NCBI GenBank assembly: GCA_018645065.1
Contig: JABGPF010000007.1
Span: forward strand, 1-44,615
Direction: 5' to 3'
Source: Phycisphaerales bacterium
Lineage (GTDB): Bacteria; Planctomycetota; Phycisphaerae; SM23-33
Length of the DNA stretch: 44,615 nt
A model generated the notes under the pieces. It was not told where the DNA came from, ran no database searches, and saw only the letters and a program-made list of their open reading frames with translations. Of this stretch, positions 18,407 to 43,264 are shown in pieces. A program made the translations under genes and the position numbers. The number at the start of each line of letters is the position of its first letter. Positions within the stretch are counted from its first letter, which is position 1.

Positions 18407-18422
18407 AAAAGCGGTTTATCTG

Positions 18423-21752: not shown

Positions 21753-22088
21753 TTGTTCCGATGGTATAATATGGTTATGACTTCAGCGATTCTTACATTA
21801 TTGGGTCCAGGCGAGGTGGGCTTGCGGCTTGGCGGTCACGTAAAGGCATTGCGGTTGGACAGGGGGTGGACTCGTGACACCCTTGCCTCGCGCGCGGGCG
21901 TATCGTCGGCATCGCTTAAACGGTTTGAGACTACCGGAAAGGCCTCGCTCGAGCTGGTCTTAAAAACCGCCTGTGCGCTCGGTCGACTTGACGAGTTCGG
22001 TAAGTTACTTCAACCACCTCCTGCCGGAAGCATAGAAGAGCTCGAACGCCGCGCCGCCAAACCTGCTCCCAAGCGAGGCCGCATATGA
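21753..22088 (+). CDS. hipB: XRE-family HTH antitoxin (HipB-like)
   Basis: HTH: VKALRLDRGWTRDTLASRAGVSSASLKRFETTGKASLELVLKTACALG. Its stop overlaps the hipA ATG as ATGA (22085-22088). The true start is probably ATG 21771 or 21777 rather than the TTG at 21753. Confidence 0.85.
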   Translation: MFRWYNMVMTSAILTLLGPGEVGLRLGGHVKALRLDRGWTRDTLASRAGVSSASLKRFETTGKASLELVLKTACALGRLDEFGKLLQPPPAGSIEELERRAAKPAPKRGRI

Positions 22089-23371: not shown

Positions 23372-23516
23372 TTGTGCGTGCAGATTGGGAGATGCAAATA
23401 GGGATCTGCATGGTTTTGGAGGAGTCTTATGCACAGCTCTGCTTCAAGATCGTCCATGTCGTGAATTTGTACGAATTTATGTGCGAGGTCGGGGTGAACC
23501 TCACTGGAGTTGTAAT

Positions 23517-26500
23517 ATGAGCAGACGTCATACTGACGGGGATAATAACCTTGTGCTTCTCGAGCAGCTTGAGCCTCGTTTGCTCCTGGCTGCTGATGTT
23601 ATTATCAGCGAGATCATGTATCAGGACTTTACCGACGTAGACAACAGTCTGCCTGAAGATTTCGGTGAAGAGTTTATCGAACTGTACAACCGTGGTGATG
23701 CGCCGGCAGACCTGCTCGGATGGCGGATTGACAGCGGTGTGGATTTTGACTTCCCCGACGTGACTATCGGAGCCGGTGAGTATCTGGTGATACCCGCTGA
23801 CCCGGATGTTTTCGCAACGAACTATCCTACGGTAACAAACTACATTAACGCCGGATGGACCGGGCATCTCAGCAATTCCGGTGAAACTATCGATCTACAG
23901 GACGAACTGGGCGTTACCGTTGATAAAGTGGATTACGCCGACGAAGGCGATTGGGCGGTTCGCCAGTGGGTCGCAGACGAGGCCTACGGGTTCGGGTACG
24001 ACTGGTCAGGCCTGCACGACGGAGGCGGGCACACTCTTGAGTTGATCAATCCGGCGATCACGAACAACAACGGGCAGAACTGGTCGGCCAGTCTTGTTGT
24101 CGGCGGCTCGCCCGGCGCGGTCAACAGCGTGTATGACGACAATATCGCACCGCTGATCAGCAAGGTCGGGCACACCCCGATTATTCCCACCGCTACTGAC
24201 GATGTGACGGTAGTGGCCAAAGTGCAAGACGAGCTTACTACCGGTTTAGTAGTCGAGCTGCACTATCGCGACGATGGTGATCCGGAGTTTACGACCGTTA
24301 CGATGTATGACGACGGTCTGCATAACGACGGTGATCTGGGCGACGGGATTTACGGTGTTGATCTGCCGGCTCGTCCTGACGGCACGATAGTGGAGTTTTA
24401 CGTTCAGGCGACCGATGCCGATTCGAACTCCCGAAACTGGCCAGGCCCGGTAACGGACAAGGGTCAGACCGCCAACTGTCTCTATCAGGTTGACGATAGC
24501 TTCACCGGCGACTGGACGCCCGGCGACCAACCGGTGTTCCGCGCGATTCTAACGGCGGTGGAGTGGGATGAACTCGACTGGATCGAGGATAATCAGCGCT
24601 GGTCCAATGCTGAGCGAAACGTCACGTTCGTAAGCGTTAACGGCGCCGGCGTCGATGTGATTTACCAAGCCGGGATGCGCAACCGCGGAAACGGCAGTCG
24701 CACCACAGTTCCGCACAACCAGCACATAAGCATACCCAGCGATGATCTGTGGAACGGTGTTCAGGACGTGACAATCAACGCGCGGGTCCCGCAGTCACAG
24801 GCTATCGGAAGCGCGGTTTTCCGCTACGCCGATATCGCCGCGATAGATACGATCCCGATCGAACTGCAGATCAACGGAACCAACTACGCACCGGGCAGCA
24901 GGTACTATCGGTATAACTGGCTCGAAGCGCTCGACGGCGACATGGCGGCCAATCACTGGCCCGACGATTCGTCCGGTGATTTGTACAAATGCAACGACTC
25001 AAACGGCGGTGGGACCGAAGCCGATCTGGATTATGACGGTGAGGATCCGGCGAATTATAATATTGCCTACGCCAAGCAGACCAATGTGGCCGTCGATGAT
25101 TATTCCGGCCTGATCAACATGCTTCAGGTGCTGAACCATGCACCGGCTGAGACATATCTCCAGGACGTCGCTGCGGTGGTTAACATCGATCAGTGGTTGC
25201 GTTTCCTTGCAGTCGATACGCTGTTGGCAAATGGTGAAGGTGGTCTTACAAGCGGGCGCGGCGACGACTACGCGATGTACCAGGGCGTGAACGATCCGCG
25301 GTTCGAACTGGTGCCTTACGATCTGGACACCGTATTGGGAACCGGAAGCCAAAGCCAAATTGGCGATAGTATATGGGACTATCGCGGTGCGGGTCTAAAT
25401 GGCTTAAGCCGTCTGCTCAGCCAGCCGGAAGTCATCCAAAAATACTACGCGGTGCTGCTGGAGCTTTGCGATACGGTGTTCTCGCCTGAGCAAATCGATC
25501 CGCTGATCGACGAAGTCCTGGGCGGATGGGTCACTGCCGGTGAAATCGAAGATATCAAGCAATTCGCAGTTGCGCGAGTGGCAAACGTTCGCGGGCAAGT
25601 GAACGATAACGTGCTTTCGGTAAGCAGCAGTCTTCCAACCAGCGGAGATTACCCGCGCACCACTAACGGGACCGTCGGTCTGACCGGAACCGCCAGCGGA
25701 GCCTATGTCCGATCGATCAAGGTCGACGGGAAACTTGCCGTCTGGGATCAGGAGGCCGGTACGTGGTACTTCGACGACGGCTCGTCCTCCTACCAGGAAC
25801 AGTTGCTGGTGAGTTCCGATTCCGGGGTCACTTATCACGTTCCAACAGCCGGCGACGATCCGCTGGCCTGGACGCAGGTCGCGTTTGACGATAGCGGTTG
25901 GGTTGACTCGATCAGCCTTGATGCAGCCGGATTGCTGATAACCGAACTTGGCACGGGCGACACGAAGTTTGTCGAGTTGCAGAACGTTTCGGACGCCGCG
26001 GTCGACACTACCGGATGGCGGGTGTTGCTGAACGATTCTTCAGGCGGGATTGACGCCGTTAACGCAACGGCATGGTCGCTACCGGCGTCGGTCGGGGCCA
26101 GCGAGGTGCTCTACCAGACCGACAGCGCAGCCGATAATTATTTGGGCGCGTCGATCGACTGGGCCGCCGAAGGACCCGGTTGGGTGATGATTATCGATGC
26201 CTCCGGTCAGGTGCGGGACTTCGCGGCGTGGGGTTACACCGCCGTCGAAATCGCAGCGATGGACATCAGCTTCGATACCTTTGCGAGCATTACTGTGGGC
26301 GATGAGTGGAGCGGCGATGGGGCGGCGGTAGGTACGGTGGGCCCGGGCGCCGAAGCGCCAACGGTCGACATAACCGACATCACGCCCGACCCGAACAATA
26401 CAATAATCGACGCGGTGGAAATCGTGTTCTCCAAAGCCGTCACCGGTTTCGAGATCGCCGATCTAACACTCACGCGCGACGGTGGGGCGAACCTGCTTAC

Positions 26501-29500
26501 CGCATCGCAAACGCTAACCACAACAGACAACATTACCTGGACGCTCGGCGGACTCAGCACAGTTACAAACCTCAGCGGGGAATATTCGCTTTCGCTGACG
26601 GCGTTGGGCTCAGGGATCACCGACACCGAAACCACGCCCCAGGCGCTGATAGTAGGCGCAGCCGAGACGTGGGCAAGCGATCTTGACGCGCCGACGGCCG
26701 ATATTATCGACGTGACGCCCGATCCGCACGCAACTGCCGTAGCTACGATAGATATCGAGTTCACCGAAGCTGTCAGCGGTATGGACATTACCGATCTTGC
26801 CCTCACGCTCGATGGCGGGGCGAACCTGCTTACCGGCGCCGAAACGCTGACAACCGGTGATAACGTAACCTGGACGCTCGGCGGTCTGGGCGGTTTAACT
26901 ACGATTGAGGGCGAATATACGCTAACGCTTACCGCCAGTGCTTCGGGCATTCAAGACGCAGCGGGCAATTTGCTTGCTATAGACGCTTCGGAGGTCTGGA
27001 CGACTTCCGGCGTGGCGCCCACCGCCGATATCACCGACGTAACGCCCGACCCGAGCGTGAACGCTGTTGACGAAATCGAGATCGTTTTCAGCGAACCGGT
27101 CACCGGTCTGGATATTACCGATCTTACTCTTGAGCTTGACAGCGGGGCGGTTGCGTTTGGCGGAACCGAAACGCTGACGACAACTGACAACATTACCTGG
27201 ACTCTCGGCGGTCTGGCGGCGCTAACGGTTGTCGATGGAACATATCTGCTTACACTTACCGCTGCCGGCTCGGACATTCAAGACGCTGCTGCCAACGCAC
27301 TGGCCAGCGACGCGACTGATACGTGGATCAAGTACACGCCCACCGGCGGATGGGTCGCGTTTAACGATCATATCGCAGGACCGGGCACGCACGTTAACAC
27401 AACGTCATACGCAGGAAACGGCACCGCGTCGGGCCAGTTGAAGAACATTGACACCGGCGTGAACGTTGGCGTTGTTCTGACTACGTCGGACTCCGGCGCG
27501 GTTTACGATAACAATGGCGAGAGCCCGGCGGTTGGAACTGACGCACACAATATTTTCAACACGTACGTGGACTTCACCGCAAGCACCGGCACGAGTATAG
27601 AAATCGCCGGGACCAACTCGTACACCCACGCCTTCTCGAGTCTGGACATCGGCGACGCATACACCTACGACTTCGACGGTACGATGATTCGCGGAAACGC
27701 GGCGTACAATGATCGCTGGACCACCGTTACGCTGGTTGGCGCCGATGCATCGGTAGCAAACCACAGTGCCGGGTCAGGCGTTGTGGTTATCAGCCCGACG
27801 CAAGTGGCGATCCTGGTTGGTTCGAACATCGACGAAGGCGTTGTGGCTGGATGGACCGGTATCGATCCGGGCGCCGATGGTGAATTCCAGATCGTATCGA
27901 CACATTACACCGGCGCCACTCCGGGCGTCGGCACGGGAACCGCCGTTGGGAACAAAACCTACGCGATCGGCGGAATTCGTCTGGCAGAGGTGCAGGTGGT
28001 TCAGGCTCCGGTCGCTCCGCCGGTTACGGCTCCGCTACCGGCCGCCGCGCCGGGCGATGAAGGGTTCGTAGCATACAACGATCACATTCCGAGCTATGGC
28101 GGCGCCACGCACGCCAACACGACCGACTACTCAGCCATGAGCGGCGAGGTGGCTTCGGGGTTATTGAAAAACATCGCAGACGGAACCGACACCACCGTTA
28201 CTCTGACGGTTACCGACGCCGGTATTCACTACGCCGGCGGCGCTGGCGATCCGGCTGCGGGCACCGACGCTTACAATATTTTCAACGGATATGTGGACCT
28301 CGGCGCGGCGACCGGCGGCAGTATCGAAGTGTCTGGCGCTGATCATTACACTTATACGTTCTCAGGGTTGGATATCGGCGATCTGGTGACGTACAACTTT
28401 GACGGCACGGCCGTTCGCGCCAATAGTGCGTATGCTAATCGCTGGACGCTGGTCACGCTCCAGGGCGCTGACGGATTCCTGGCCAGCCACAGCACGGGCA
28501 TCGGCGTGGTCACCAGCGATGTCAACCCGGCGCTCGGAGTCAATCAGGTGGCGATCTGGACCGGGCACAACAGTACAGGCGTCCAGGGCTTTGTAGCCGG
28601 TTGGACAGAAATTGACCCAGGCGCCGACGGCGTGTTCACCGTTGTCTCCGAGCAGTACCAGGGCGTTACGCCCGGTGTGGGCACCGGGGATTCGAGCGGT
28701 GGGGACAAGGGATACGGAATTACCGGTATCAGGTTAGAGGAAGTCGCTCCAAGCGGTCCGCAGTCGTGGTTGAAACGCGTAGGCGACACCGACGCCGACA
28801 CAGGCGACAACTTCCGTAGAAGCGCCTCAGACAGCAAAGGCGTCCAGAACCCCGATATGACAGTCCCGTTCGGCTCGGTTCTACCTACTGAGCAGGGCAT
28901 CGGTTTCAGCGATAACCAAGCCGAGTTCGATTCGATTATCGCAACCGATGTGGGCGACACGATGCAGGGGGTTAACGCCTCACTGTTCAGCCGCATCGAG
29001 TTTGCCTCCGGTCCGCTGGACGCATACGACACGCTTACGCTGCGAATGAAATATGACGACGGGTTCATCGCGTATCTTAACGGTACGGAAGTCGCCCGCC
29101 GCAACGCCGACAATCCCCTGGCCTGGAACACCGAGGCCTCGGGCCAGCGAGACAACACCCAGGCGGTTATCTTCGAAGAGATCGACATCTCGGCGCACCT
29201 GGACAAGGTGATCGACGGGGTCAATGTTCTTGCGATTCACAGTATGAACGTAACTGCCGGCGATGCGGATCTGATCATGCAGACCGAACTGCTGGCCAGC
29301 CGCGGAGAGTTGGACCCGGGCCTGAGCCTGGAAGCCGGTTTGAACCGCGTAACTGTTGAAGCGTTTTCCGGCCCGGACGGGACGGGCGAGCTTCTCGATA
29401 GTACGCACATTGACATTTGGAACGACGTGGGCCCGACTCATGTTTATCCTCAAGCAGGCGGTGGTGGAGTTTCGGCTCCGGTCAGCGCGAAGTTGGTGGT

Positions 29501-32500
29501 TCGCGACAGTTACCTGCCCGGCGTGCCGGTGCTGGTTCGTGTTGAGGCACTGGACGCAACAGGTGAAATCTGCCGCGACCTCTGGGACGCGACGGTGACC
29601 TTGTCGGCTGACAGCGGCGTGCAAATGGACGTCAGTGCGATCACGATGTACAACGGTATGGGCAGCGTGCTCGTTACGTTCACCGGTGGAACGGGCGATT
29701 TCCAGTTGACTGCCAGCGTGGACGGTTTGCCCTTGCAGGATGCCGATGATCTGACGGTGTTGGACCCGGCTTCGGCGACATCTATCAGTGGTGACTTGAG
29801 TTTGATTGACGCTGGTGGGGTATCGAACTGGAGCGGGATCTACCACGTGACCGGCGATCTGCTCGTACCGGACGGGCACACGCTTAATGTCGCAGCCGGT
29901 ACGCTGGTGTTGATCGACGGAAACCCAACGCTGCTCAGCACTGACGGCGTGGACATTGACATTCAGGGCGTTATAAATTCGCAGGGCACTGAAGCTCAGC
30001 CCGTAACGTTCACTGCTTTTGACTCGGCTGCTAAGTGGGGCGAAATGCACCACGACGGTTCCGAGGCCTCGACGTACAGTTACACGAATATCACGCTGGC
30101 GGGGCATTCGCCTCGCGGCGGGCACACCAATACGGGTCCGGCGTTGCGGTCGGGCGGCGGTTCGATTATCACTTTCGATCATTCATCCATTACTGATCTG
30201 GGGGGCAAAGTCGGGCAGATAAACGATTCGGAACTGGTGTTCCAAGATACGCTGCTGTCGCGTGCGGCTATGGGTCCGGAGTTCGATCATTCCGGCCTGC
30301 TGTTCCAGGACAGTTTCATTATCGATATGTTGGGTCAATATCGTGAAGACGGTATCACCGACGATGACGACGGAATCTATCTGCACGCAGCCGGAGCTGG
30401 TCAGACTATCGAACTGATCCGAAGCGTTATCGCTCACGGGGAGGATGATGGTGTCGATACGGCTTCGTCGACCGTTCTCGTTAAGGATACGATCATTCGA
30501 GATTATACGGACAAGGGCATCAGCGTTTCCGGCGGTGACACCACCGTGGAACACGCGATTATTGTTGGTAATAATATCGGTATGGAGGTCAAGAGCGGCG
30601 GCGCGACCGGGATTGTCAATAATTCCACGGTAGTCGACAATGTTAATGGGTTGCGGTTGCTGAGTTCGGCGTCGGCTTTGACGGTCAACAGTTCTATTGT
30701 TCATGGAACGAGCGATTCGCTCTACGCCGATATTCCCGCCGCCGCGGTTGTCACGTACAGCAACATCGGCGAGACATGGGCCGGGACGGGCAACATTAAT
30801 GAGGACCCGATGTTCGTTGACCCGGCCGCCGGGGATTACAGTCTCCAGGCCGATTCGCTGTCGATCGACGCCGGCGACCCAGCCGATCCGCTTGATACAA
30901 ACGGCAGCACTATCGATCAGGGTTACTACACCAACCAACCGTACCTTACCGGTCCGGTGACAGGCGAACTTGCCGGCGATACGATCTGGAGCCCGGAAAA
31001 CGGGCAGTATCGCATAACCGGCGATCTTACGGTTCCTGCTGGGATTACGCTTACGATCATGCCGGGCACAACGGTGTTCTTTGGCCAGGGCGCGCAGCTT
31101 ATTGTTGAAGGTCGCCTGGCGGCTGAAGGCCTGCCCGAGGCGAATGTTTACTTCGCGCCGGCTCCCAACGTGACTGACTGGGAAGGCATTCACTTTGTTA
31201 ACACCACCGCTGACAACCGCATCACGCATGCGATTCTTCAGGGTTCGACGCGCACCGACGGAATGGTCGAGCTGGACAACTCCCGTGCGACGATTGAAAA
31301 CTCGGTGTTTGAAAACGCCGACCGACGCCGGATCACCGCGATTAATTCGTCGCTGATTGTGCGTAACTCGACGTTCGCAGATTTTGATGTCTCCGGTACG
31401 CCCGAGAACAACGTTCTTGAGCACATCTGGGGCCGGAACGTAATTGCCGGCGGGGAAATGATCATCGAAAACAACGTGTTCGGTGTAACGCCGGGCCATA
31501 ACGACGCGATCGATTTCGACGCCGGGCACCGCCTCAGCGGCGACCCGGTCCCGCAGATTCTCAACAATACGTTCAACGGCGGCGGCGACGACGCACTGGA
31601 TATCGAAGGCGACTTCTACGTTCAGGGCAACGTGTTTAAGCATTATCGAAAAGACGCATACCACGCTGCGGTCGACAGCGGTGAATCGAACGTGATATCC
31701 GCGGGCGATACTCACAATGTCGGGCACCATTACGTGGTTACGGGCAACGTGTTCTACGATTGCGATCACGTAACGCTCGTCAAAGAATCCTCGTTCATGA
31801 CGTTCACCAACAACACCGTTGTCGGTGTTGACCAGGGCGCGCACGCCAATTCGATAGGCGCGATTAACTTTGACCTCGCAGCCGGCGAGCCAGAAGGGCG
31901 CGGAGCCTACCTCGACGGAAATATTTTTGTAAACACCCCGCTGGTCTTCAACTATCTCGATACCGGCGCGGTGGCGACTGATCTTACGGTTAACCGCTCG
32001 ATTCTGCCGGCTGGGGAGCATTATGGCGGTGCGGGCAATATCGACGCCGATGCGCGTCTTACCGATCCGGCAGGCGGCGACTTTACGCTGAAGTCCGGTT
32101 CGCCGGCGTTTGGCTCCGGACCAGTTGGCGTGGACATGGGCGCAGACGTCGCCCCCGGCGCGTCAGTATCGCCGGTCCCGCTGACAGAAACTTATCTCAC
32201 CGACGCGACGTTCGACGTGTCCGGTGATGGCGATTATCATCACGCACCGTTCCTGGCTTACAAGTATCGCCTGAACGGCGGAGCATGGAGCGCCGAGCAG
32301 GCTCCCGGTACGCAGATCGTGCTTACCGGTTTGGTCGACGGGCCTCAATCGCTGGAAGTTATTTCGCAAAACTTCGCGGGCGTATGGCAGGTGGAAACCG
32401 AAGCGGTTACGCGACTCTGGCTGGTCGACACCGCACTGTCGCGCGTGCTGATAAACGAAGTGCTGGCAACTAATCGCACTGCACACATGCACGACGCCCG

Positions 32501-33173
32501 CAGCCTCGACGTGATCGAACTGTACAACGATTCGCTTGCGACTGTCGCCGATCTGTCCGGCTGGTCGATCAGCGACAACGTTGATCTGCCGCAGAAGTTC
32601 GTGTTCCCCGCCGGCACCACGATCGCGCCGGGCGCTTACCTCACGCTTTATGCGGGCGATCCTGATCCTCTTGTCGCGGTCACGGGCATTTACCTTGGCT
32701 TCCAGCTCGACGGCGACGGCGACGATGTGTCGCTCTACAACGCTTCGCAGACGCTCGTCGATTCGATTACCTTCGGTACGCAGATCGCCGACATGTCGAT
32801 CGGACGAACCGGTGCGACTCGCGACTGGTCGCTAACTCACCCGACTATCGGAGCAGCGAATATCGCCCAGGCGACCGTCGATCCGGACCTAGTCCTGATC
32901 AACGAATGGTTCGCAAACGGCGACGAAGTGCTCATCGACGATTTTATCGAGCTGCACAATCCCGATACGCTGCCGGCCGATATTTCCGGGATTTACGTGA
33001 CGGACAATCCCGCCAATCAGAAGACAAAGCACCAGTTGGCGCCGCTGAGTTTCATTGACGCTGAAGGGTTTGTCGCGCTGACCGCCGATTCGCGAAACGA
33101 CGCCGGTCACGTCGACTTCAGGCTCCGCACGGACATGGAAATTCTCGGCCTGTTTGATTCGAATGTCGTTTAG
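23517..33173 (+). CDS. Giant secreted LTD/CotH/parallel-beta-helix protein: N-terminal 3218 codons of a single interrupted gene
   Basis: GGAG lies 7 nt upstream of ATG 23517. N-terminus MSRRHTDGDNNLVLLEQLEPRLLLAAD (LEPR-x-LL type). Lamin-tail domains: IISEIMYQD..EFIELYNRGDAPADLLGWRI, LLITELG..FVELQNVS, VLINEVLA..VIELYNDS, LVLINEWF..FIELHNPD. CotH-like block: MRNRGNGSR...GDLYKC...YAMYQG...VPYDLDTVLG. Tandem Ig-like and 220-aa modules. Beta-helix repeats: NSTVVDNVNG, NSSIVHGTSD. It ends at the in-frame TAG 33171-33173. Confidence 0.9.
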   Translation: MSRRHTDGDNNLVLLEQLEPRLLLAADVIISEIMYQDFTDVDNSLPEDFGEEFIELYNRGDAPADLLGWRIDSGVDFDFPDVTIGAGEYLVIPADPDVFATNYPTVTNYINAGWTGHLSNSGETIDLQDELGVTVDKVDYADEGDWAVRQWVADEAYGFGYDWSGLHDGGGHTLELINPAITNNNGQNWSASLVVGGSPGAVNSVYDDNIAPLISKVGHTPIIPTATDDVTVVAKVQDELTTGLVVELHYRDDGDPEFTTVTMYDDGLHNDGDLGDGIYGVDLPARPDGTIVEFYVQATDADSNSRNWPGPVTDKGQTANCLYQVDDSFTGDWTPGDQPVFRAILTAVEWDELDWIEDNQRWSNAERNVTFVSVNGAGVDVIYQAGMRNRGNGSRTTVPHNQHISIPSDDLWNGVQDVTINARVPQSQAIGSAVFRYADIAAIDTIPIELQINGTNYAPGSRYYRYNWLEALDGDMAANHWPDDSSGDLYKCNDSNGGGTEADLDYDGEDPANYNIAYAKQTNVAVDDYSGLINMLQVLNHAPAETYLQDVAAVVNIDQWLRFLAVDTLLANGEGGLTSGRGDDYAMYQGVNDPRFELVPYDLDTVLGTGSQSQIGDSIWDYRGAGLNGLSRLLSQPEVIQKYYAVLLELCDTVFSPEQIDPLIDEVLGGWVTAGEIEDIKQFAVARVANVRGQVNDNVLSVSSSLPTSGDYPRTTNGTVGLTGTASGAYVRSIKVDGKLAVWDQEAGTWYFDDGSSSYQEQLLVSSDSGVTYHVPTAGDDPLAWTQVAFDDSGWVDSISLDAAGLLITELGTGDTKFVELQNVSDAAVDTTGWRVLLNDSSGGIDAVNATAWSLPASVGASEVLYQTDSAADNYLGASIDWAAEGPGWVMIIDASGQVRDFAAWGYTAVEIAAMDISFDTFASITVGDEWSGDGAAVGTVGPGAEAPTVDITDITPDPNNTIIDAVEIVFSKAVTGFEIADLTLTRDGGANLLTASQTLTTTDNITWTLGGLSTVTNLSGEYSLSLTALGSGITDTETTPQALIVGAAETWASDLDAPTADIIDVTPDPHATAVATIDIEFTEAVSGMDITDLALTLDGGANLLTGAETLTTGDNVTWTLGGLGGLTTIEGEYTLTLTASASGIQDAAGNLLAIDASEVWTTSGVAPTADITDVTPDPSVNAVDEIEIVFSEPVTGLDITDLTLELDSGAVAFGGTETLTTTDNITWTLGGLAALTVVDGTYLLTLTAAGSDIQDAAANALASDATDTWIKYTPTGGWVAFNDHIAGPGTHVNTTSYAGNGTASGQLKNIDTGVNVGVVLTTSDSGAVYDNNGESPAVGTDAHNIFNTYVDFTASTGTSIEIAGTNSYTHAFSSLDIGDAYTYDFDGTMIRGNAAYNDRWTTVTLVGADASVANHSAGSGVVVISPTQVAILVGSNIDEGVVAGWTGIDPGADGEFQIVSTHYTGATPGVGTGTAVGNKTYAIGGIRLAEVQVVQAPVAPPVTAPLPAAAPGDEGFVAYNDHIPSYGGATHANTTDYSAMSGEVASGLLKNIADGTDTTVTLTVTDAGIHYAGGAGDPAAGTDAYNIFNGYVDLGAATGGSIEVSGADHYTYTFSGLDIGDLVTYNFDGTAVRANSAYANRWTLVTLQGADGFLASHSTGIGVVTSDVNPALGVNQVAIWTGHNSTGVQGFVAGWTEIDPGADGVFTVVSEQYQGVTPGVGTGDSSGGDKGYGITGIRLEEVAPSGPQSWLKRVGDTDADTGDNFRRSASDSKGVQNPDMTVPFGSVLPTEQGIGFSDNQAEFDSIIATDVGDTMQGVNASLFSRIEFASGPLDAYDTLTLRMKYDDGFIAYLNGTEVARRNADNPLAWNTEASGQRDNTQAVIFEEIDISAHLDKVIDGVNVLAIHSMNVTAGDADLIMQTELLASRGELDPGLSLEAGLNRVTVEAFSGPDGTGELLDSTHIDIWNDVGPTHVYPQAGGGGVSAPVSAKLVVRDSYLPGVPVLVRVEALDATGEICRDLWDATVTLSADSGVQMDVSAITMYNGMGSVLVTFTGGTGDFQLTASVDGLPLQDADDLTVLDPASATSISGDLSLIDAGGVSNWSGIYHVTGDLLVPDGHTLNVAAGTLVLIDGNPTLLSTDGVDIDIQGVINSQGTEAQPVTFTAFDSAAKWGEMHHDGSEASTYSYTNITLAGHSPRGGHTNTGPALRSGGGSIITFDHSSITDLGGKVGQINDSELVFQDTLLSRAAMGPEFDHSGLLFQDSFIIDMLGQYREDGITDDDDGIYLHAAGAGQTIELIRSVIAHGEDDGVDTASSTVLVKDTIIRDYTDKGISVSGGDTTVEHAIIVGNNIGMEVKSGGATGIVNNSTVVDNVNGLRLLSSASALTVNSSIVHGTSDSLYADIPAAAVVTYSNIGETWAGTGNINEDPMFVDPAAGDYSLQADSLSIDAGDPADPLDTNGSTIDQGYYTNQPYLTGPVTGELAGDTIWSPENGQYRITGDLTVPAGITLTIMPGTTVFFGQGAQLIVEGRLAAEGLPEANVYFAPAPNVTDWEGIHFVNTTADNRITHAILQGSTRTDGMVELDNSRATIENSVFENADRRRITAINSSLIVRNSTFADFDVSGTPENNVLEHIWGRNVIAGGEMIIENNVFGVTPGHNDAIDFDAGHRLSGDPVPQILNNTFNGGGDDALDIEGDFYVQGNVFKHYRKDAYHAAVDSGESNVISAGDTHNVGHHYVVTGNVFYDCDHVTLVKESSFMTFTNNTVVGVDQGAHANSIGAINFDLAAGEPEGRGAYLDGNIFVNTPLVFNYLDTGAVATDLTVNRSILPAGEHYGGAGNIDADARLTDPAGGDFTLKSGSPAFGSGPVGVDMGADVAPGASVSPVPLTETYLTDATFDVSGDGDYHHAPFLAYKYRLNGGAWSAEQAPGTQIVLTGLVDGPQSLEVISQNFAGVWQVETEAVTRLWLVDTALSRVLINEVLATNRTAHMHDARSLDVIELYNDSLATVADLSGWSISDNVDLPQKFVFPAGTTIAPGAYLTLYAGDPDPLVAVTGIYLGFQLDGDGDDVSLYNASQTLVDSITFGTQIADMSIGRTGATRDWSLTHPTIGAANIAQATVDPDLVLINEWFANGDEVLIDDFIELHNPDTLPADISGIYVTDNPANQKTKHQLAPLSFIDAEGFVALTADSRNDAGHVDFRLRTDMEILGLFDSNVV
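26355..27340 (+). repeat. Three tandem ~330-bp coding repeats (Ig-like ~110-aa modules) inside the megaprotein gene
   Basis: Units start at about 26355, 26688 and 27014. Each encodes APT(V/A)DI(T/I)D(I/V)TPDP....I(E/D)I(V/E)F(S/T)..V(T/S)G..I.DL.LT.DGGANLL....TLTT.DN(I/V)TWTLGGL......G(E/T)Y.L.LTA..SGI.D. Confidence 0.85.
27345..28744 (+). repeat. Two tandem ~220-aa coding repeats of an unassigned module inside the megaprotein gene
   Basis: Copy 1 is 27345-27992 (GGWVAFNDHIAGPGTHVNTTSY...GGIRLAEV). Copy 2 is 28062-28744 (GFVAYNDHIPSYGGATHANTTDY...TGIRLEEV). Shared blocks: LKNI, AVGTDAxNIFNxYVD, FSxLDIGD, RWTxVTLxGAD, VAGWTxIDPGADGxF, TPGVGTG. Confidence 0.85.
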
Positions 33174-36100
33174 CTCGACCGGGTTTACTATCGCCCGCAA
33201 ACTGAAGACGTAAGTCAAGGCCGCACCGCCGACGGCAGCACGAACATCGAATTCTTCACTCTTCCGACACCTGGTCTCGGTAATGTGGCGTTCGGTTCGC
33301 AAGCTACGATCGTCGCTGAGGGCGACCCCAAGTACGTTCTGGTTCCTGACGTGAACACAGTTACAACCTGGCCTGCGGTTGATTTTGTGACCTGGCCGGA
33401 TGTTGGGTTCGACACCACCGGTTGGACATATTGGGACGGTTCACCCGGCGGCGTGGGGTACGATTCCGGTGACGGAGGTTACACTCCTCTTATCGGAGTA
33501 GATCTTATCGAAATGGATAATGTCAGCACGTCTGCTTACATTGCCTACCCGTTTACGTTTGACGGCGACCCGAACGGATTAACGAGCCTGTCGCTCAATA
33601 TCCGATACGATGACGGATTTGTGGCGTATCTCAACGGGCAGGAAATTCACCGTGAGATGTTCGACGCCGGGTCGACCCCTGCGTGGAATTCCACAGCTAC
33701 CGGCTCCCATGCCGATACTGCGGCGCTGAACCTGATAAGTTTCAACGTGTTGGACCACAAAGACGCCATGAATAACGGGGCGAACTTGCTGGCGATACAC
33801 GGGCTCAATGACACCGCGACCAGCAGCGACTTGCTGATCTCAGCCGAGCTGGTGGGCACGCTTCCGGGCTCGTTTGCGAATTTGATCGCAGTTCACAACG
33901 ATCTGCGAATCACCGAGATCATGTACAACCCCGCCGGTTCGGACGATAAGGAGTTCATCGAATTCCAGAACGTGGGGGCGGCGACTCTGGACTTAACGGG
34001 CGTTCGTTTGACTGACGGCGTTGAGTTTGTGTTCCCGGCGGTAACGTTGGCTCCGGGCGAATATATAGTTGTTGCGCGTGAGCTGGCTGAGTTCGAGGAC
34101 TTCTACGGCGCCGGTATCAATGCGATTGGCGATTATGTCGGTTCGCTGAGCAACGCCGGTGAGGACATTCTCCTGCAGATGCCCGGTATGCACGAAGCGG
34201 CGATTCTGCGATTCGATTATAACGACGCCTGGTATCCGGCCACCGACGGCGAGGGGGCTTCGCTGGTGATAGTTAACCCGCTGGGGCGGCGTGGTGACTG
34301 GGATCCGGCTGCAGGCTGGTTGCCCAGCGGAACTGCGGGCGGTTCTCCGGGCACGGGCGATGTTACGTCCGATATTACGCTCGGTTCGGTGGTCGTAAAC
34401 GAAGTGATGGCCCACACCGACGGCGGCGTGGAAGACTGGATCGAACTGCACAATACAACGGAAGGCGATATCGATATCAGCGGGTGGTTCCTCAGCGACG
34501 ATCCGAGCGATCTCGAAAAATTCGTGATACCTGACAATACGATCCTGATCGCCGGCGGTTATGTCGCGTTCAATGAAGTTACTCACTTCGGCACGACGGT
34601 CGATCCGGTTAACGGGTTTGCACTCAGCGAACTTGGCGACACGGTTATTATCTCGTCGAGCGATATCAATGGCGACATCAGCACGTACCGCAGCTTTGTG
34701 AGTTTCGCCGCCACAGCCAACGGCGTATCGCTCGGGCGTCACACCCTGAGCACAGGTGAGGTCGATTTCGTCGCGATGGAAACGCCTACTTACGCTGATG
34801 AGAATTCCGCGCCGTTAATCGGGTCGATGGTGATCGAAGAGATCATGTATAATCCCGACGGACCCGGCGGAGCCGAATACATCCTGATGAAGAACATTTC
34901 CGGTTCGATAGTTGAGCTGTACGACCCAGCCAATCCGACGAACACATGGCAAATCAGCGGCGGGGTGGAGTTCGTATTCCCGCAGGGCGTAACGGTCCAA
35001 CCGGGTCAGTTCGTGCTGATAACCAACGTTGACGCCGCTACGTATCTCGCCACGCGAACCGTTGGCGCCGATGTGCAGGTGTTCGGTCCGTTCACCGGAG
35101 CGCTAAGTAACGCTGGTGATACTATCACTGTTAACCGGCCTGGAGCGCCGGAGACAACACCTGTTCCGCTGGTTCCGCAGATCGCTGTCGAAACGATTAA
35201 ATTCAACGATTCGCTGCCCTGGCCCGAAGCGGCTGACGGCGACGGGCCGGCGCTGGCGAAACTGCCCGGCGCGATCGGCGAGTATGGGAACGATCCGATA
35301 AATTGGGGCGTTTCCGGCGGGCCGGCGATCACGATCAACCCACTGGTCACCACCGACCAGACACCCGAACTCACCGGTACCGTGAGCGATTCGCACCTGC
35401 TTTCAACGGTTACGGTAACCGTTAACGGTGTGGATTATATCGTGCCGATTGTTGGCGGGACCTGGACGCTTGCCGACGATGCGATAACCGCACCGCTGCC
35501 TGGCGGAGTGTACGATGTGGCGGTGTCGGGGTTCGATATCGCAGGTAACCTTGGTGCCGACAGCACCGCAGGCGAACTTAACGTGGACCTCGGACTCGGC
35601 GTTGTCGGTCGCGATGTGTTTTACAATAATTCCGCGTGGGACGGCGCCGGCGACAGTGCCGCAATTGACACCGGCAAGGCAGCGCTCCTGCCCGGCCAGT
35701 TGCCATCGAGCGTGAACTACACCAACTACTCCCGCGGTATTAACGGGATAATGGTCGATATCGACGGACTGACCGCCGCCGCACCCGCCGATTTCGCCAT
35801 ACGCATCAGCGACGCTGCTGGCGCCTGGATATCCGGCCCGGAGCCGACAGTAAACGTGCTGCCCGGACAGGGCGCAGGCGGTTCAGACCGCGTGGCGCTA
35901 ACCTGGGATGACGGAGCTATCGTTAACCGCTGGATCGAAGTGACCGTGCTCGCCACCGCCAACACCGGCCTGGACAGTGACGATCTGTTCTACTTTGCAA
36001 ATGCAACCGGTGATGTTGACGGCGACGGTGATGTTGACTCCGCCGATTTCAGCTCGCTGCTTGGCGATTTCGGGCAGGCCGGAGCATTGGGCGAGCTGAC

Positions 36101-36515
36101 CACCGACTTCAACGCCGACGGCAGAACCAACCTGACCGACTTCGTGACCCTCAGGAGCAGTTACAATAATATCGTGCTGACCCCGTCGATCGCAGAGGCA
36201 GTCCCGGCTGCGGCGCCGATCGCTCCGGCTCCGGTGATGGCGATGGCGCCGGTTATCACCGAACCGATAATCGAACCGGAAAGCAACAGCGATCCGCTGG
36301 TCTTGGCGATATCCGAGCCAATGGCCGATCTGTTCGTCGAATCGCAGGATGTTGGCGAATATATCCCAGTGGCTGCGCCCGAGATCCAATCGGAGTCCAC
36401 ACTGGCGGCAACAACCGAAAGCGAACTGAGGCCTTTAAGCGATCCGGAACCAGATAACAATACCGACCCACTAACCGATCTGTTGACAGAAGCAGCACTA
36501 GTGCTACCGCTATAA
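33174..36515 (+). CDS. C-terminal 1113 codons of the same megaprotein gene (LTD x3, jelly-roll-like module, Ig-like, dockerin-like). The ORF track lists it as 33285-36515.
   Basis: It is in the same frame as 23517-33173. Codons 33174-33284 are open and complete the interrupted LTD (LDRVYYRPQTEDVSQGRTADGSTNIEFFTLPTPGLGN). Further LTDs: LRITEIMYNPAGSDDKEFIEFQN, VVVNEVMAHTDGGVEDWIELHN, MVIEEIMYNPDG. Dockerin/EF-hand-like loops: GDVDGDGDVDSADF and DFNADGRTNLTDF. There is no ATG, SD or signal peptide at 33285. Confidence 0.85.
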   Translation, partial: LDRVYYRPQTEDVSQGRTADGSTNIEFFTLPTPGLGNVAFGSQATIVAEGDPKYVLVPDVNTVTTWPAVDFVTWPDVGFDTTGWTYWDGSPGGVGYDSGDGGYTPLIGVDLIEMDNVSTSAYIAYPFTFDGDPNGLTSLSLNIRYDDGFVAYLNGQEIHREMFDAGSTPAWNSTATGSHADTAALNLISFNVLDHKDAMNNGANLLAIHGLNDTATSSDLLISAELVGTLPGSFANLIAVHNDLRITEIMYNPAGSDDKEFIEFQNVGAATLDLTGVRLTDGVEFVFPAVTLAPGEYIVVARELAEFEDFYGAGINAIGDYVGSLSNAGEDILLQMPGMHEAAILRFDYNDAWYPATDGEGASLVIVNPLGRRGDWDPAAGWLPSGTAGGSPGTGDVTSDITLGSVVVNEVMAHTDGGVEDWIELHNTTEGDIDISGWFLSDDPSDLEKFVIPDNTILIAGGYVAFNEVTHFGTTVDPVNGFALSELGDTVIISSSDINGDISTYRSFVSFAATANGVSLGRHTLSTGEVDFVAMETPTYADENSAPLIGSMVIEEIMYNPDGPGGAEYILMKNISGSIVELYDPANPTNTWQISGGVEFVFPQGVTVQPGQFVLITNVDAATYLATRTVGADVQVFGPFTGALSNAGDTITVNRPGAPETTPVPLVPQIAVETIKFNDSLPWPEAADGDGPALAKLPGAIGEYGNDPINWGVSGGPAITINPLVTTDQTPELTGTVSDSHLLSTVTVTVNGVDYIVPIVGGTWTLADDAITAPLPGGVYDVAVSGFDIAGNLGADSTAGELNVDLGLGVVGRDVFYNNSAWDGAGDSAAIDTGKAALLPGQLPSSVNYTNYSRGINGIMVDIDGLTAAAPADFAIRISDAAGAWISGPEPTVNVLPGQGAGGSDRVALTWDDGAIVNRWIEVTVLATANTGLDSDDLFYFANATGDVDGDGDVDSADFSSLLGDFGQAGALGELTTDFNADGRTNLTDFVTLRSSYNNIVLTPSIAEAVPAAAPIAPAPVMAMAPVITEPIIEPESNSDPLVLAISEPMADLFVESQDVGEYIPVAAPEIQSESTLAATTESELRPLSDPEPDNNTDPLTDLLTEAALVLPL

Positions 36516-36799: not shown

Positions 36800-37627
36800 A
36801 TGAACATTAAAAAACTATCGTCACTGGCGGTTTGTGCGGTAATTGGCGTTGCGGTTCTCGGAGGTTCGTTGTATCGAACCCATGCAGCCAAGGCGCCCGC
36901 CAAAAAAACTATCCGCGTCCTGTTCGTAGGTAACTCATACACGTACGGTAATAAGCTTCCCCAGGTGGTCGCCGCTATGGCCCGGGCCGACAAAACCGTC
37001 GCGCCGATGGAAGTGAAAATGGTCGCCAGCGGGGGCAAGAACCTTATCTGGCACTCGCAGAACAAGACCACGCTCGACGCTATCGCAGAAGGCTGGGATT
37101 ACGTGATCCTGCAGGACCAGAGCCTCACCCCAACGCTCATGCCCCAACGAACCCGCAAGGGCGCCGCCGTGCTCGACGCAGCCATAAAAAAAGCCGGCGC
37201 CAAAACCATGTTCTTCATGACCTGGCAACGCAAACCGACGCCGGAACTGCTGAAAAAATACCCCGACATGCACAAACGCAATTCCGAAACGTACATGTCA
37301 GTAGCACGCGAACTCAAAGCCGCCGTCGCACCAGTGGGATACGCCTGGAAAGCAGCGACCGACGCCAACCCGAACTGCCCGCTATACACCAAAGACAACT
37401 CCCACCCATCGCGAGCCGGTACATACCTGGCGGCGTGTGTTTTCTACTCAACGATCTACAACAAGCCCCCAACGCGCCTGCCCGCCACGGTGATACTGTC
37501 CCAAAAGGGCAATCGCAAAACAGTTCTAAGCATCCCGTCAACCTTGGCAAGCACCCTAAAACCAATCGCCTGGACAGCAGTCCAAAAAGCAAAAAAAGAA
37601 CTAACCTCAAAACCCAAGACCAAGTAG
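36800..37627 (+). CDS. Secreted SGNH/GDSL-like hydrolase family protein
   Basis: Signal-like N-terminus MNIKKLSSLAVCAVIGVAVLGG. Block I-like VLFVGNSYTYG. Block V-like DNSHPS. Overall size and pattern are typical of SGNH-fold proteins. Confidence 0.7.
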   Translation: MNIKKLSSLAVCAVIGVAVLGGSLYRTHAAKAPAKKTIRVLFVGNSYTYGNKLPQVVAAMARADKTVAPMEVKMVASGGKNLIWHSQNKTTLDAIAEGWDYVILQDQSLTPTLMPQRTRKGAAVLDAAIKKAGAKTMFFMTWQRKPTPELLKKYPDMHKRNSETYMSVARELKAAVAPVGYAWKAATDANPNCPLYTKDNSHPSRAGTYLAACVFYSTIYNKPPTRLPATVILSQKGNRKTVLSIPSTLASTLKPIAWTAVQKAKKELTSKPKTK

Positions 37628-37754
37628 CGGTTCTGGAGCGTCCTGGGGGTCGAGAATAGATCTGGGCGTTTCCATGTCGCTGTTTTTTTTGTATAATGCC
37701 TGACCGTACAGGTGTCGAATGTTCGACATTGACGGTTAACTTTAGGAGCAAGCT

Positions 37755-38096
37755 GTGATTTTTAAACCGAAAGATATGCGATCCCAGGTCCGTTCACTCA
37801 TGAAAGACGGACTCGGCGATGTCACCGTTAAACATATGGTCGAATGCGACGATCTGCCCAATATTCGCTTCCTGGGCGAAATGACCCTGCCGGCTGGCGC
37901 GTCGATCGGCGATCATACCCACGCTACGGAAACCGAATACTACATCATCACCGAAGGCGTAGGCGTGGTGAACGATAACGGTGAAGATCAGCGTGTCGGT
38001 CGAGGTGATGTGATCGTCACCGGCGGCGGAGCGACCCACCGCATCAAAAACGCAGGATCAACACCGCTGGTTATCATCGCGTTCATTGTTACGGAC

Positions 38097-39237: not shown

Positions 39238-40449
39238 TTAAAAGGTGCCTTCGACGTCCATGACTTTGGCTTTGGAGGTGTCTTTTACATAGGTGGAAGA
39301 GTCGATTCGCTCTTGGAGCAGGGCGTGGTATTTTTCGGCGTCTATGGGCAGGTCCACCCATGCGTCGGTCCATGCCGACAGCAGCATCGCGTTGCTGAGC
39401 GTCAGGCTGTTAATGCCTTCCGATCCGTCGGCGACCATGAGTTTCGGATCGTCAGCCAGGATCGCCTTGATCCACGCCGCGGTGACTTCGGCGTGTTGTC
39501 CGCCGGTGTCGTCAGACGGTATATCGCACTTCCAGACTTCCGGTGATCCGAATCCGCCTTCGTATTCGGCGTTGAATTGGCGTTCGGGCGTTCGATTACG
39601 CCAGAAGGTCAGTTTGTCGTCCTCCATGATAATCTTACCGCGATCACCGGCGACCTCGAAGCGGTTAGTGCCCGGCGCCTCGCCTGTGGAGGTGATGAAC
39701 GTTCCGGTCGCCCCGTTTTCATATTCCACGTACGCGGTGACGTCGTCTTCGACTTCGATGTTGTGGTACTTTCCGAACGAGCAGAACGCCCGGACGCGTT
39801 TGGGCATACCGCAGAACCACTGCCACATGTCCAACTGGTGTGGGCATTGGTTCAGCAGCACTCCGCCGCCTTCGCCAGCCCAGCTTGCCCGCCATCCGCC
39901 GGCATCGTAATAGCTCTGCGGACGGTACCAGCTCGTAACGGTCCAACTGTTGCGTTTAATGTCGCCCAGTTCGCCCGATTCGAGCAGGTCCTTGAGCTTC
40001 TTGTGCAGGCCGATGGTTCGCTGCTGGAACATCATCGAGAACATCTTGCCCGACTTGGCTGCCGCTGCGTTAAGCTCGGCGACCTGTGCGGTGTAAACGC
40101 CCGCGGGCTTCTCGCTGAGCACGTGCAAACCGCTCTCAAACGCCTGGATGCCCAACGCAGGATGATGGTAGTGGGGCGTTGCGATAATAACCGCGTCGAT
40201 TTCGCCCGAGGCGCACATCGCGTCAACGCTGTCGAACGTTTTGATGTCGCCGCCGAGTTTTTTCGCCGCGGCGGCTAGTGACTCGGCGTTCGCGTCGCAC
40301 AGTGCTGTTAGTTCTGCGCCTTTGATTTCGCCGTTTGCGAGATATTTTCCGTGTGCCTGGCCCATTCCGCCTGACCCGATAATGCCTACACGCACCTTAT
40401 CCACTGATCTGCTCCCTTGATTTCCGGGGGTTTTTATTATTTTTGTCAT
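39238..40449 (-). CDS. Gfo/Idh/MocA family oxidoreductase
   Basis: Rossmann N-terminus VRVGIIGSGGMGQAHGKYL, then AVIIATPHYHHPALGIQAFESGLHVLSEKP and a family-typical C-terminal alpha/beta domain. Confidence 0.92.
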   Translation of the reverse strand: MTKIIKTPGNQGSRSVDKVRVGIIGSGGMGQAHGKYLANGEIKGAELTALCDANAESLAAAAKKLGGDIKTFDSVDAMCASGEIDAVIIATPHYHHPALGIQAFESGLHVLSEKPAGVYTAQVAELNAAAAKSGKMFSMMFQQRTIGLHKKLKDLLESGELGDIKRNSWTVTSWYRPQSYYDAGGWRASWAGEGGGVLLNQCPHQLDMWQWFCGMPKRVRAFCSFGKYHNIEVEDDVTAYVEYENGATGTFITSTGEAPGTNRFEVAGDRGKIIMEDDKLTFWRNRTPERQFNAEYEGGFGSPEVWKCDIPSDDTGGQHAEVTAAWIKAILADDPKLMVADGSEGINSLTLSNAMLLSAWTDAWVDLPIDAEKYHALLQERIDSSTYVKDTSKAKVMDVEGTF

Positions 40450-40464
40450 CGATGTTCGTTGCGA

Positions 40465-41721
40465 TTAATAAAGCTTGACGATTTTGGCGCCGGGGTAATA
40501 GAAGCCGATGATCTGTTCTGCTCGCCAACCGGCCAGCGCTTTTCCTTGCAAGCCGTATTGGCACATCCCCACGCCGTGTCCGTATCCGCGTCCGTTCCTG
40601 AACTCGAAACCCGAGCCGGTGTCTACAATTTGGCAGTTCATCGAGTAGAGTTTTTTGTATCGCGGGGTGCTGCTGAAGATCATCGCCAGGCGGATTTTTT
40701 CCGCGCGGAGTCGCACTGTTTTTCCGTTCACGCCGATGAGGTTGACCCAGACCGCCCGGCCGTGGGCGAGCTTTTGGGCGACTTGTATAGTTCTCAGCCC
40801 GCCAAGCGCCCGCACTTGCGAATGGTTACCGCAGAGCAGCCTGAACAGTTCTGATTTCGAGATTCGCACCGGCGCCCATCTGTACTTGCTGCTTGCGGTG
40901 CAGTGTTGATCGGCCTGCCCGCCCTGGAGCGGTTTGATTGGCGGTGCGTCGCGGAGTACGATCGCAGCGTTTACGTGCCCACCGCAGCATGACGAGTATT
41001 GAGGCATGAAGATTCGATCTTTACCGCGGTAGTTCGCCGTAAGCACCCATCCGCGCGTGGAGTTCACCGCTTGTCGCGATTTGGTGGTTTCGCCCATGAT
41101 CCCACCGTAAACTTGTGATTTCACGCCGTCTTCCAGGTCGTAGTATCCCGAGCTGCCGGAATGCATCATGTTATAGTATGCGAAGGTTCGCGCCGCCACC
41201 GCCAGTCCGCGATAGGCCTCAACATGCCACGATCCGAACAGTTCCTTGGCCAGCACTCCAGCGAGATAATCGTCGAGGTTCACGTGATTGACAACGATGA
41301 AGGCGTTTGGCCCTCTGGGTGTCAGGACGAGTTTTCCGTGATATGTCTTGCCGCTGAAACCGACGTGCTTGTTGGGTTGTGAGTCAATGGTTTCGACGAC
41401 AAGCCGATTTGCCCGCAGAGAACTGTTTCCGACGATCCAGGCCCCGCCGCTTCGTCTGATTGATCTGATAGATCGTCCCGGGCGAACGAGTTTTCCGTTG
41501 GCGACTATCCGGACGCCCACGGACCCCGCCAGGCTCGCTGAGCCTGTAGGTGTTTTGCTAAGCAGCACTCGGATCGTGCCTCGGGGCGTCGGGTGGGGGG
41601 TCCCGGTACCGTTTGTCTTGACGGGCGGTTTCTCGCAACCGCCCAGCCCCAGTCCGATCACGGATGCGACGAGTAGAACAGTTAGTTTACCGGTGAGCTT
41701 TGAGGGTGTCATATTGGCCAT
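40465..41721 (-). CDS. SpoIID/LytB domain-containing protein (peptidoglycan remodelling)
   Basis: Motifs: VNLDDYLAGVLAKE, EAYRGLAVAARTFAYYN, SQVYGG, QYSSCCGGHV, QHCTASSKYRW. Lipoprotein-like N-terminus LGLGGCEKP. Confidence 0.85.
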   Translation of the reverse strand: MANMTPSKLTGKLTVLLVASVIGLGLGGCEKPPVKTNGTGTPHPTPRGTIRVLLSKTPTGSASLAGSVGVRIVANGKLVRPGRSIRSIRRSGGAWIVGNSSLRANRLVVETIDSQPNKHVGFSGKTYHGKLVLTPRGPNAFIVVNHVNLDDYLAGVLAKELFGSWHVEAYRGLAVAARTFAYYNMMHSGSSGYYDLEDGVKSQVYGGIMGETTKSRQAVNSTRGWVLTANYRGKDRIFMPQYSSCCGGHVNAAIVLRDAPPIKPLQGGQADQHCTASSKYRWAPVRISKSELFRLLCGNHSQVRALGGLRTIQVAQKLAHGRAVWVNLIGVNGKTVRLRAEKIRLAMIFSSTPRYKKLYSMNCQIVDTGSGFEFRNGRGYGHGVGMCQYGLQGKALAGWRAEQIIGFYYPGAKIVKLY

Positions 41722-41808
41722 AGGGTCCGCGCTGCAGGCTGCGGCGGCGGCCCGTCTAAAGCCGCAGTCTCGTGTTGGAGTCTCGGATATATTGGTCCCG
41801 GTTCTGCG

Positions 41809-43140
41809 TTAGTCGGATTCCGCGAGCCTCAGTCCGTACTGTCCCAGGGCCTGTCGTATTGTGTTCAGGCTGGTCTGTCCGAAGTTTCTGCACGCCAGCA
41901 GTTCCGGTTCGCTTTTGCTGACCAGATCGCCAAGCGTTTCGATATGGAGTAATTCGAGAGCTTTTCTTGCCCGCACCGAAAGTTCGATTTGCGACAGCGG
42001 TGTAGCCAGCACACCCTCTCTGGCTTGTGAGGACGTGTCGCTGGTGAACATGTCGGCCAGTTCCGCGGTGGCGGTGTCTTCGAGCGCCTGTCCGAGTCGC
42101 AGGCCCTTGAGGGCGAGCATGTCTCGGATTTCCTTCAGTGAAGTTTCACCGAAGTTTTTGTATTCCAGAAGCCGTGTCTCGGGCGTGTTCACCAGATCGC
42201 CAAGCGTGCTGATATCCATCTTCTTGAGGCAGTTGCGGGCTCGGACCGAAAGTTCGAAGTCCGTTACGGGTGTTTCGAGGATTGCGTTTCGTTGCGCCAT
42301 CATCTTGGCGCGATCTTCGTCGAAGTACATGGTCTTTGACGCTTCGGCGTCGCGGAGGAACAGTTTGGCTCGCCAGTGGCCCGGGTTAATCGCCAGTATC
42401 CGCCTGATGCACAGGCACGCCTGGTCGTACTCTTCGGCGTCTTCGTAGAGCACCGCCATGTTCATCAGCGCCCCGGCGTGGACCGGTTGGAGAGCCAGGC
42501 ATTGCTGGTAGAGTTCTATCGCGGCTTCTTCGTCACCGTAGAGATCGTTGAAATACGCCAGGCGGAACAGCGCCTTTGCATTGGTTTCGTCTGCGGCGAC
42601 CGCTGCTTCGTAGGCCTCGCCGGCCAGTTGCTTATCTCCGTCGAGTTCCTCCAGCAGGCCCTTCATGCAGAGATAGTTCGACGTCTCGCCGAGCTTGGTC
42701 GTTGCGGACTTCAAATTCTTTGCAGCCTGCTTCATATCGCCTGACATTGCGCGGCATTCGATAATTTCCAGATCGATTTGGGGATCTTCCCAACCGCGAG
42801 CCTTGGCCAGGTCGAGCTCTTCGATCGCGCGATCGTGATGTCCGAGTTGTACTTGGCATTGTGCCTGGAAGTATCGTCGGTCTTTATTATCGGTTCCGGC
42901 TGCGAGCACTTCTAAGGCTTCGGTGAAGCGGCAGGTCATGTACAGTGCGATACCGAGTTTTACAGCGCCGCCGCCTTTGGGTTCGGGATTATCGCTTTCG
43001 ATTTTACCGACCAGTTCTCTGAGTTTGTCTGCGGTGTCACCGGCTTCTGAGAGCGTCTCGTTGAGCACGCGGTAGTCTTCGTATGTCCACGTGTCACGTG
43101 CGCGAATCTCGTTAATAGTTTCTTTTGATGTTTCTTCCAT
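41809..43140 (-). CDS. TPR-repeat protein with two C-terminal RNA polymerase alpha-subunit CTD-like (HhH) modules
   Basis: TPR-like helices occupy the N-terminal ~270 aa. Two copies of the alpha-CTD signature follow: TPVTDFELSVRARNCLKKMDISTLGDLVNTPETRLLEYKNFGETSLKEIRDMLALKGLRLG and TPLSQIELSVRARKALELLHIETLGDLVSKSEPELLACRNFGQTSLNTIRQALGQYGLRL. I prefer the start at ATG 43140 (GGGAGA 7 nt upstream); the ORF-track start is 43158. Confidence 0.85.
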   Translation of the reverse strand: MEETSKETINEIRARDTWTYEDYRVLNETLSEAGDTADKLRELVGKIESDNPEPKGGGAVKLGIALYMTCRFTEALEVLAAGTDNKDRRYFQAQCQVQLGHHDRAIEELDLAKARGWEDPQIDLEIIECRAMSGDMKQAAKNLKSATTKLGETSNYLCMKGLLEELDGDKQLAGEAYEAAVAADETNAKALFRLAYFNDLYGDEEAAIELYQQCLALQPVHAGALMNMAVLYEDAEEYDQACLCIRRILAINPGHWRAKLFLRDAEASKTMYFDEDRAKMMAQRNAILETPVTDFELSVRARNCLKKMDISTLGDLVNTPETRLLEYKNFGETSLKEIRDMLALKGLRLGQALEDTATAELADMFTSDTSSQAREGVLATPLSQIELSVRARKALELLHIETLGDLVSKSEPELLACRNFGQTSLNTIRQALGQYGLRLAESD

Positions 43141-43264
43141 CGCAATTTCTCCCGGCATATATATAATTCGTCTTAAAATACTGATCTATTGGTTCTAGGC
43201 GGCAAGTCGAGTATTATAACCAAAACTAGCTCGACTGCAACCGAATCTGGCCGATGGATAACCT

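Follow-up and report, generated by a model that had tools for sequence, protein, structure and literature searches.

A giant lamin-tail surface-protein gene of a Phycisphaerales bacterium is probably disrupted by a recent in-frame amber mutation

Natural nonsense alleles are known from several bacterial genes. In Listeria monocytogenes several independent natural nonsense alleles of inlA coexist, each removing the C-terminal anchoring part of InlA, an LPXTG-anchored internalin of 800 residues whose receptor is known, so that the truncated product is released. In Salmonella Typhi the giant adhesin genes siiE, shdA, ratB and bigA are pseudogenes whose context of host restriction is known, while the rpoS(Am) strain polymorphism of E. 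coli K-12 is a CAG-to-TAG change that turns Gln33 into an amber codon and leaves residual function by suppression or re-initiation. Here we describe a gene of 4,332 codons, interrupted once by an in-frame amber codon, on contig JABGPF010000007.1 of a Phycisphaerales bacterium (assembly GCA_018645065.1, positions 1 to 44,615; the whole of this 44,615-nucleotide stretch is called the window). It encodes a putative surface protein that contains lamin-tail domains (LTDs).

Read as a nonsense mutation, the interruption would resemble those of inlA in that it removes the C-terminal part of a large surface protein and occurs with more than one allele; the protein here is of about 4,330 residues, however, its anchoring is putative (a dockerin-like module) and two assemblies serve as the population data. 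Like siiE, the gene is giant and repetitive, has an internal stop that yields two annotated open reading frames (ORFs), is intact in related lineages and can be read as the loss of a dispensable function, but siiE belongs to the adhesins with bacterial Ig-like (BIg) repeats and type I secretion, whereas the present gene combines LTDs, CotH and a beta-helix. The base change is the same CAG-to-TAG transition as in rpoS(Am), where re-initiation gives an active cytoplasmic protein; a protein re-initiated here would begin within a beta-sandwich and be without the N-terminal export motif.

The frame at 23385-36515 on the plus strand comprises 4,377 codons, with the TAG at 33171-33173 as its sole internal stop and the TAA at 36513-36515 as its terminal one. 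An earlier note on this DNA had described a single gene of about 4,330 codons split by one in-frame TAG, and both the translation and the single-ORF orthologues described below agree with it. Its frame, drawn from 23385, was correct, but the true start is the ATG at 23517 (N-terminus MSRRHTDG..LEQLEPRLLLAAD / MSRRHTDGDNNLVLLEQLEPRLLLAAD), from which 4,332 codons lead to the TAA ending at 36515 with this one interruption. The stretch 33174-33284, which joins the TAG to the called downstream ORF at GTG 33285, holds 37 codons and no further stop, again as the note had said. In all, 1,113 codons stay open beyond the TAG, a length that chance cannot account for at 57% GC. The parts of the gene, with their Pfam domains, are as follows.

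23517-33173, plus strand: the 5′ portion, 3,218 codons and the TAG, with four LTDs, CotH, Big_12 and a beta-helix-like region; its exact translation, P0169, is a separate NCBI protein of 3,218 residues.
33171-33173, plus strand: TAG, the in-frame amber codon; at this position all of the six closest orthologous loci encode Gln, five with CAG and one with CAA.
33174-33284, plus strand: 37 codons without a stop, which lie unannotated between the called ORFs and encode the last three predicted beta-strands of an LTD; 34 of the 37 are identical to the orthologous locus L001.
33285-36515, plus strand: 3′ part, called as a protein of 1,076 residues from GTG 33285 (P0001 / P0121), with three LTDs, Big_13, a borderline dockerin-like match and a Pro/Ala-rich tail, and without an export motif of its own.

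Searching with the 450 residues on each side of the stop yielded 432 homologues, for the most part 'lamin tail domain-containing proteins' from Planctomycetota/Phycisphaerae. Of the 120 matches listed, about 115 span the site in the alignment, without a break there in any of them. These giants share the set of LTD, CotH, beta-helix and dockerin with the present gene and differ from it in being uninterrupted at the stop position. One homologue, P0122, a 4,379-residue protein from an ENA contig, belongs to the same 90%-identity cluster as the downstream ORF; it is 77% identical, reads ...FDANVVQLDRVYY... at the site, and its DNA (L001) has CAG in place of TAG. Five further orthologous loci came from scans of GTDB genomes and of JGI metagenomes, with CAG at the site in L012, L013, L014 and L003 and CAA in L002; the best match in the GTDB-representative collection stands at 76%. 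Each of the six loci is one continuous giant frame (4,366 codons in L014), L001 and L014 are collinear with the window protein across its whole length, and no orthologue is organised as two separate genes, all being single uninterrupted ORFs across the break. Since the six closest orthologues carry CAG or CAA, the ancestral codon is CAG (Gln), from which the window differs by one C-to-T transition. The earlier note had placed the stop opposite a Leu, which is correct for the neighbouring paralogous LTD only, as the six orthologues all have Gln.

The downstream part shows a degree of constraint similar to that of the part before the stop. Compared with L001, from which the window gene has diverged by a dS of 0.4-1.0, dN/dS amounts to 0.18 over the upstream part as a whole, to 0.12 over its last 700 codons and to 0.135 over the 1,113 downstream codons. 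Relative-rate comparison with L014 as outgroup counted 29 window-specific versus 25 L001-specific amino-acid changes downstream (p = 0.68) and 281 versus 307 upstream. No sign of relaxed constraint was found downstream of the TAG, nor were there further stops or frameshifts. As the downstream part is thus still constrained, the stop appears to be very young relative to the split from L001.

The stop also occurs in a second, separately built assembly of the same population, a JGI contig of 59,935 bp (IMG 3300072015) that we compared through its gene table and protein sequences. This contig carries an identical downstream ORF, has exact matches to the HipA gene and to a 275-residue gene of the window, and has a gene end at its position 9889 that equals window position 33173, i.e. 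the position of the TAG. Because it runs beyond the end of the window's contig the two are different assemblies, and the TAG has been recovered twice. In the JGI contig the upstream part is itself split in the same frame into proteins of 1,118 and 2,067 residues: the first (P0170) corresponds exactly to window 23517-26870, and the second (P0171, with a TTG start at 26970) equals the window translation save for a Tyr-to-His change at 32691. Two codons of the window are therefore altered in its sibling.

26871-26873, plus strand: TGG (Trp) codon in the context CCTGG; a stop in the sibling JGI assembly, giving a second nonsense allele, as deduced from JGI gene boundaries and exact protein identity.
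32691-32693, plus strand: TAC (Tyr) codon; His in the sibling JGI assembly, Tyr in P0122.

P0122 has Trp and Tyr at these two sites, so both JGI-specific changes are derived. When the region around 26871 was used as the query of a homology search, all that came back were unrelated Ig-repeat proteins, with no JGI fragments among them. A second stop and a missense change on the background of the TAG make up the nested pattern that would be expected of a gene no longer needed. In addition, there is no frameshift in the 13-kb frame or in the neighbouring genes, which indicates that consensus accuracy is high and argues against random substitution error. As far as consensus sequences can tell, the stop common to both assemblies, the second stop and the Tyr-to-His change speak for a genuine mutation with ongoing decay rather than for an error in the consensus.

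The gene product is predicted to be a secreted or cell-surface protein of about 4,330 residues in which a LEPR-XLL motif is followed by LTDs, CotH, Ig-like repeats, a beta-helix, further LTDs and a dockerin-like module. The LTD family (PF00932) scores 154 and 127 bits over the two whole proteins. The LEPR-XLL motif (NF012209; LE.LE.R.LL) is matched only in the upstream part, at its residues 14-29, and is the sole export-associated motif of the whole gene. The features that bear on the effect of the stop are the following.

23556-23603, plus strand: LEPR-XLL ('Planctomycete extracellular') motif at the N-terminus, LLEQLEPRLLLAAD; NF012209 scores 23.8 bits (cut-off 17), and the PF07595 match is weak.
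32892-33284, plus strand: the interrupted LTD, an Ig-like beta-sandwich, matched by Pfam over 32892-33191 and closed by the conserved end motif TPGLGN, which reaches to 33284.
36009-36152, plus strand: dockerin type I-like Ca-binding module (22.1-23.5 bits, cut-off 22.9), which the truncated product would lack.

With X set at the stop, positions 8-107 of the 109 in the Pfam LTD profile align across the TAG, although the isolated split copy scores 30.4 bits, below the stand-alone cut-off of 34.3; compared with the PDB by sequence, the split LTD gave no match. The conserved end of the domain is present after the stop (...D.V.YgPQT.DvSqGR..DG......PTPG..N). The earlier note was right to place the stop within an LTD but not at its midpoint: the TAG lies at about position 101 of 109 in the Pfam profile and about two thirds through the structural domain, ahead of the last three predicted beta-strands. 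An AlphaFold model of an orthologous LTD copy (P0002 residues 46-207, from a 24-sequence alignment; mean pLDDT 75.6, core >85) places the stop-equivalent residue, Q104, at the beginning of a predicted strand (104-110) that is followed by strands 117-121 and 129-133. In a fold search with this model the best PDB matches were the Ig-like globular domains of lamin A/C, B1 and B2 (target TM-scores 0.60-0.66). Since the stop precedes these three strands, termination at the TAG would take away three strands of the sandwich and everything downstream of it.

The middle of the protein varies between lineages. L012/L013 (3551-13657) and L002 (51-11900) have no counterpart to about residues 750-1936 of the window protein, a segment made up of three Big_12 repeats and two internal repeats of about 330 residues each, and yet keep one open frame, so that the middle of the giant protein is modular and is gained or lost between lineages.

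We consider a genuine recent CAG-to-TAG nonsense mutation, truncating a giant surface-protein gene that is now a young pseudogene or a dispensable gene being lost, to be the best explanation of this locus, with a probability of roughly 0.7. In such a scenario a C-to-T transition in the sampled population would have changed Gln codon 3219 from CAG to TAG, and translation would end there to give a 3,218-residue protein whose last LTD is short of three beta-strands. The 1,113 C-terminal residues, with three LTDs, an Ig-like domain, the dockerin-like module and the tail, would be lost, and the truncated product might be impaired or released. The sibling genome would later have gained its upstream stop at Trp1119, if this second stop is real, together with the one missense change. 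Any full-length protein would then arise only by background near-cognate read-through of the amber codon, in which misreading by tRNA-Gln would restore the ancestral residue. Deamination of 5-methylcytosine at a Dcm-type site could be imagined as the source of the changes, but this is speculation: the second site is CCTGG, whereas TCAGC, at the main site, does not match CCWGG. The locus would offer a small glimpse of how the decay of a giant surface-protein gene sets in, with a first stop shared by both assemblies and, in one of them, another stop and a missense change added later, consistent with costly giant proteins being dispensable under some conditions. Nothing in it points to a new coding or regulatory mechanism; a nonsense mutation and an annotation artefact are both ordinary phenomena.

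Several points weigh against this explanation. The stop at this site in the JGI contig is deduced from gene coordinates and exact protein identity, the TAG is known from two consensus assemblies, which may share raw data, and in the nested pattern each nonsense allele rests on one assembly apiece. Moreover, an intact downstream frame with a strong signal of purifying selection would also be expected from continued translation. Of the three alternatives that the earlier note had left side by side, a recent nonsense mutation, an error, and leaky or regulated read-through, we favour the mutation; an error is less likely as the stop is found in a second assembly, and read-through is disfavoured as the stop is unconserved and no structure follows it. 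If the stop were an error of consensus, sequencing or assembly, the organism would have CAG and an intact 4,332-codon gene. The contig is metagenome-assembled, the change concerns a single base, and the downstream frame looks fully selected, all of which would fit; the extra stop of the sibling, if it were spurious too, would hint at systematic base-calling trouble, for instance from modified bases (CCTGG). We nevertheless regard an error as unlikely, because contigs of 44.6 kb and 59.9 kb that differ at two other positions of the gene agree on the stop codon, and because substitution errors should be rare where 13 kb of gene and its neighbours hold no frameshift. Gene fission, by which the stop would separate two independently expressed functional genes, is suggested by the gene callers, which give a 1,076-residue ORF from GTG 33285, and is scarcely credible: the stop cuts a folded domain, no Shine-Dalgarno-like sequence stands upstream of the candidate starts that follow it (GTG 33285, 33351, 33387 and 33453 and ATG 33513), profile searches found no LEPR-XLL or signal motif on the downstream part, and none of the orthologues has two genes. 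The motif searches agree here with the earlier note, which had seen neither a Shine-Dalgarno sequence nor an export signal belonging to the downstream ORF.

Functional read-through, leaky or regulated, would yield a short released isoform and a lower-level long isoform bearing the LTDs and dockerin. The TAG is followed by C, and UAG-C is a weak termination context in E. coli; near-cognate tRNA-Gln would put back the ancestral residue, and the 1,113 downstream codons are intact with low dN/dS. However, a sense codon stands here in all the orthologues and homologues examined (the stop is conserved in 0 of about 115 homologues), the 126 nt from the stop onward fold no better than shuffled sequences (z = +0.32), the stop region has no Rfam match above chance, and no tRNA was found in the window. 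The youth of the mutation fully explains the low dN/dS, and the sibling's stop, 6.3 kb upstream, would abolish both isoforms. TAG, moreover, ends other genes here, and we think such read-through very unlikely. A related possibility, that a tolerated amber codon is partly read through to give a released protein of 3,218 residues alongside a minor full-length one that bears the dockerin, as a nascent population-level display switch, seems to us highly improbable. As for the code itself, six other long ORFs in the window end in TAG. Reach of the Pfam match to the C-terminus was scored on two scanned TAG-ending ORFs: an AP_endonuc_2 match (1-248/249) stops 5 residues short of its gene's TAG, and a HipA_C match spans 2-213/213 in a gene that is also TAG-terminated. 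The 275-residue gene at 36800-37627 has the same TAG in L001, beyond which lie a 39-nt indel and intergenic sequence, and the terminal stop of the giant gene itself is TAA in the window, TGA in L001 and TAG in L012, L013 and L014. Genome-wide amber reassignment is excluded, which the earlier note had thought unlikely on the grounds of TAG ending neighbouring genes. Pyrrolysine or other recoding is rejected as well, the ancestral residue being Gln and TAG terminating genes here, and A-to-I editing or a diversity-generating retroelement fits neither the sequence context nor the base change.

The preferred reading, a recent nonsense mutation in one gene, has a direct consequence for databases, where a single substitution in a giant gene enters as two or three 'proteins': the pieces are of 3,218 and 1,076 residues at NCBI and of 1,118, 2,067 and 1,076 residues at JGI, in line with the mis-annotation that the earlier note had foreseen. 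A separately initiated 1,076-residue product would begin inside the beta-sandwich and carry no export-associated motif. The two-gene reading, and with it the 1,076-residue database protein, is a gene-calling artefact; this 'protein', with its GTG start inside a beta-sandwich, was never a gene. Annotation of 23517-36515 as one disrupted gene would mend the databases.

Finally, some features of the window lie outside the giant gene. Directly upstream of it, at 21771-23302 on the plus strand, is a toxin-antitoxin pair of a helix-turn-helix (HipB-like) protein and HipA, and a 42-codon ORF called by JGI (23392-23520) overlaps its start. Genes at 16065-21533 and 39238-43185 on the minus strand also looked like split genes, sharing a frame across stop-free spacers, but encode unrelated proteins (an NPCBM protein and a GAF-PAS histidine kinase at 16065/18423; GFO_IDH, SpoIID and TPR proteins at 39238/40465/41809), and we attribute the arrangement to coincidence. 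The TAG-terminated ORF of 859 residues at 8557-11136 on the plus strand gave no Pfam match at E <= 0.001. A full-length match to the 6S RNA model (RF00013) lies at 2685-2842 on the minus strand and scores 49.1 bits (gathering score 46.4). The intergenic region 37628-37757, between the 275-residue gene and a cupin gene (GTG 37755), contains after the 39-nt indel a stretch of about 95 nt that is almost identical to L001 and more conserved than the flanking coding DNA. It includes TGTATAAT, the perfect palindrome TGTCGAA-TG-TTCGACA and AGGAG, and is probably a promoter with an operator.

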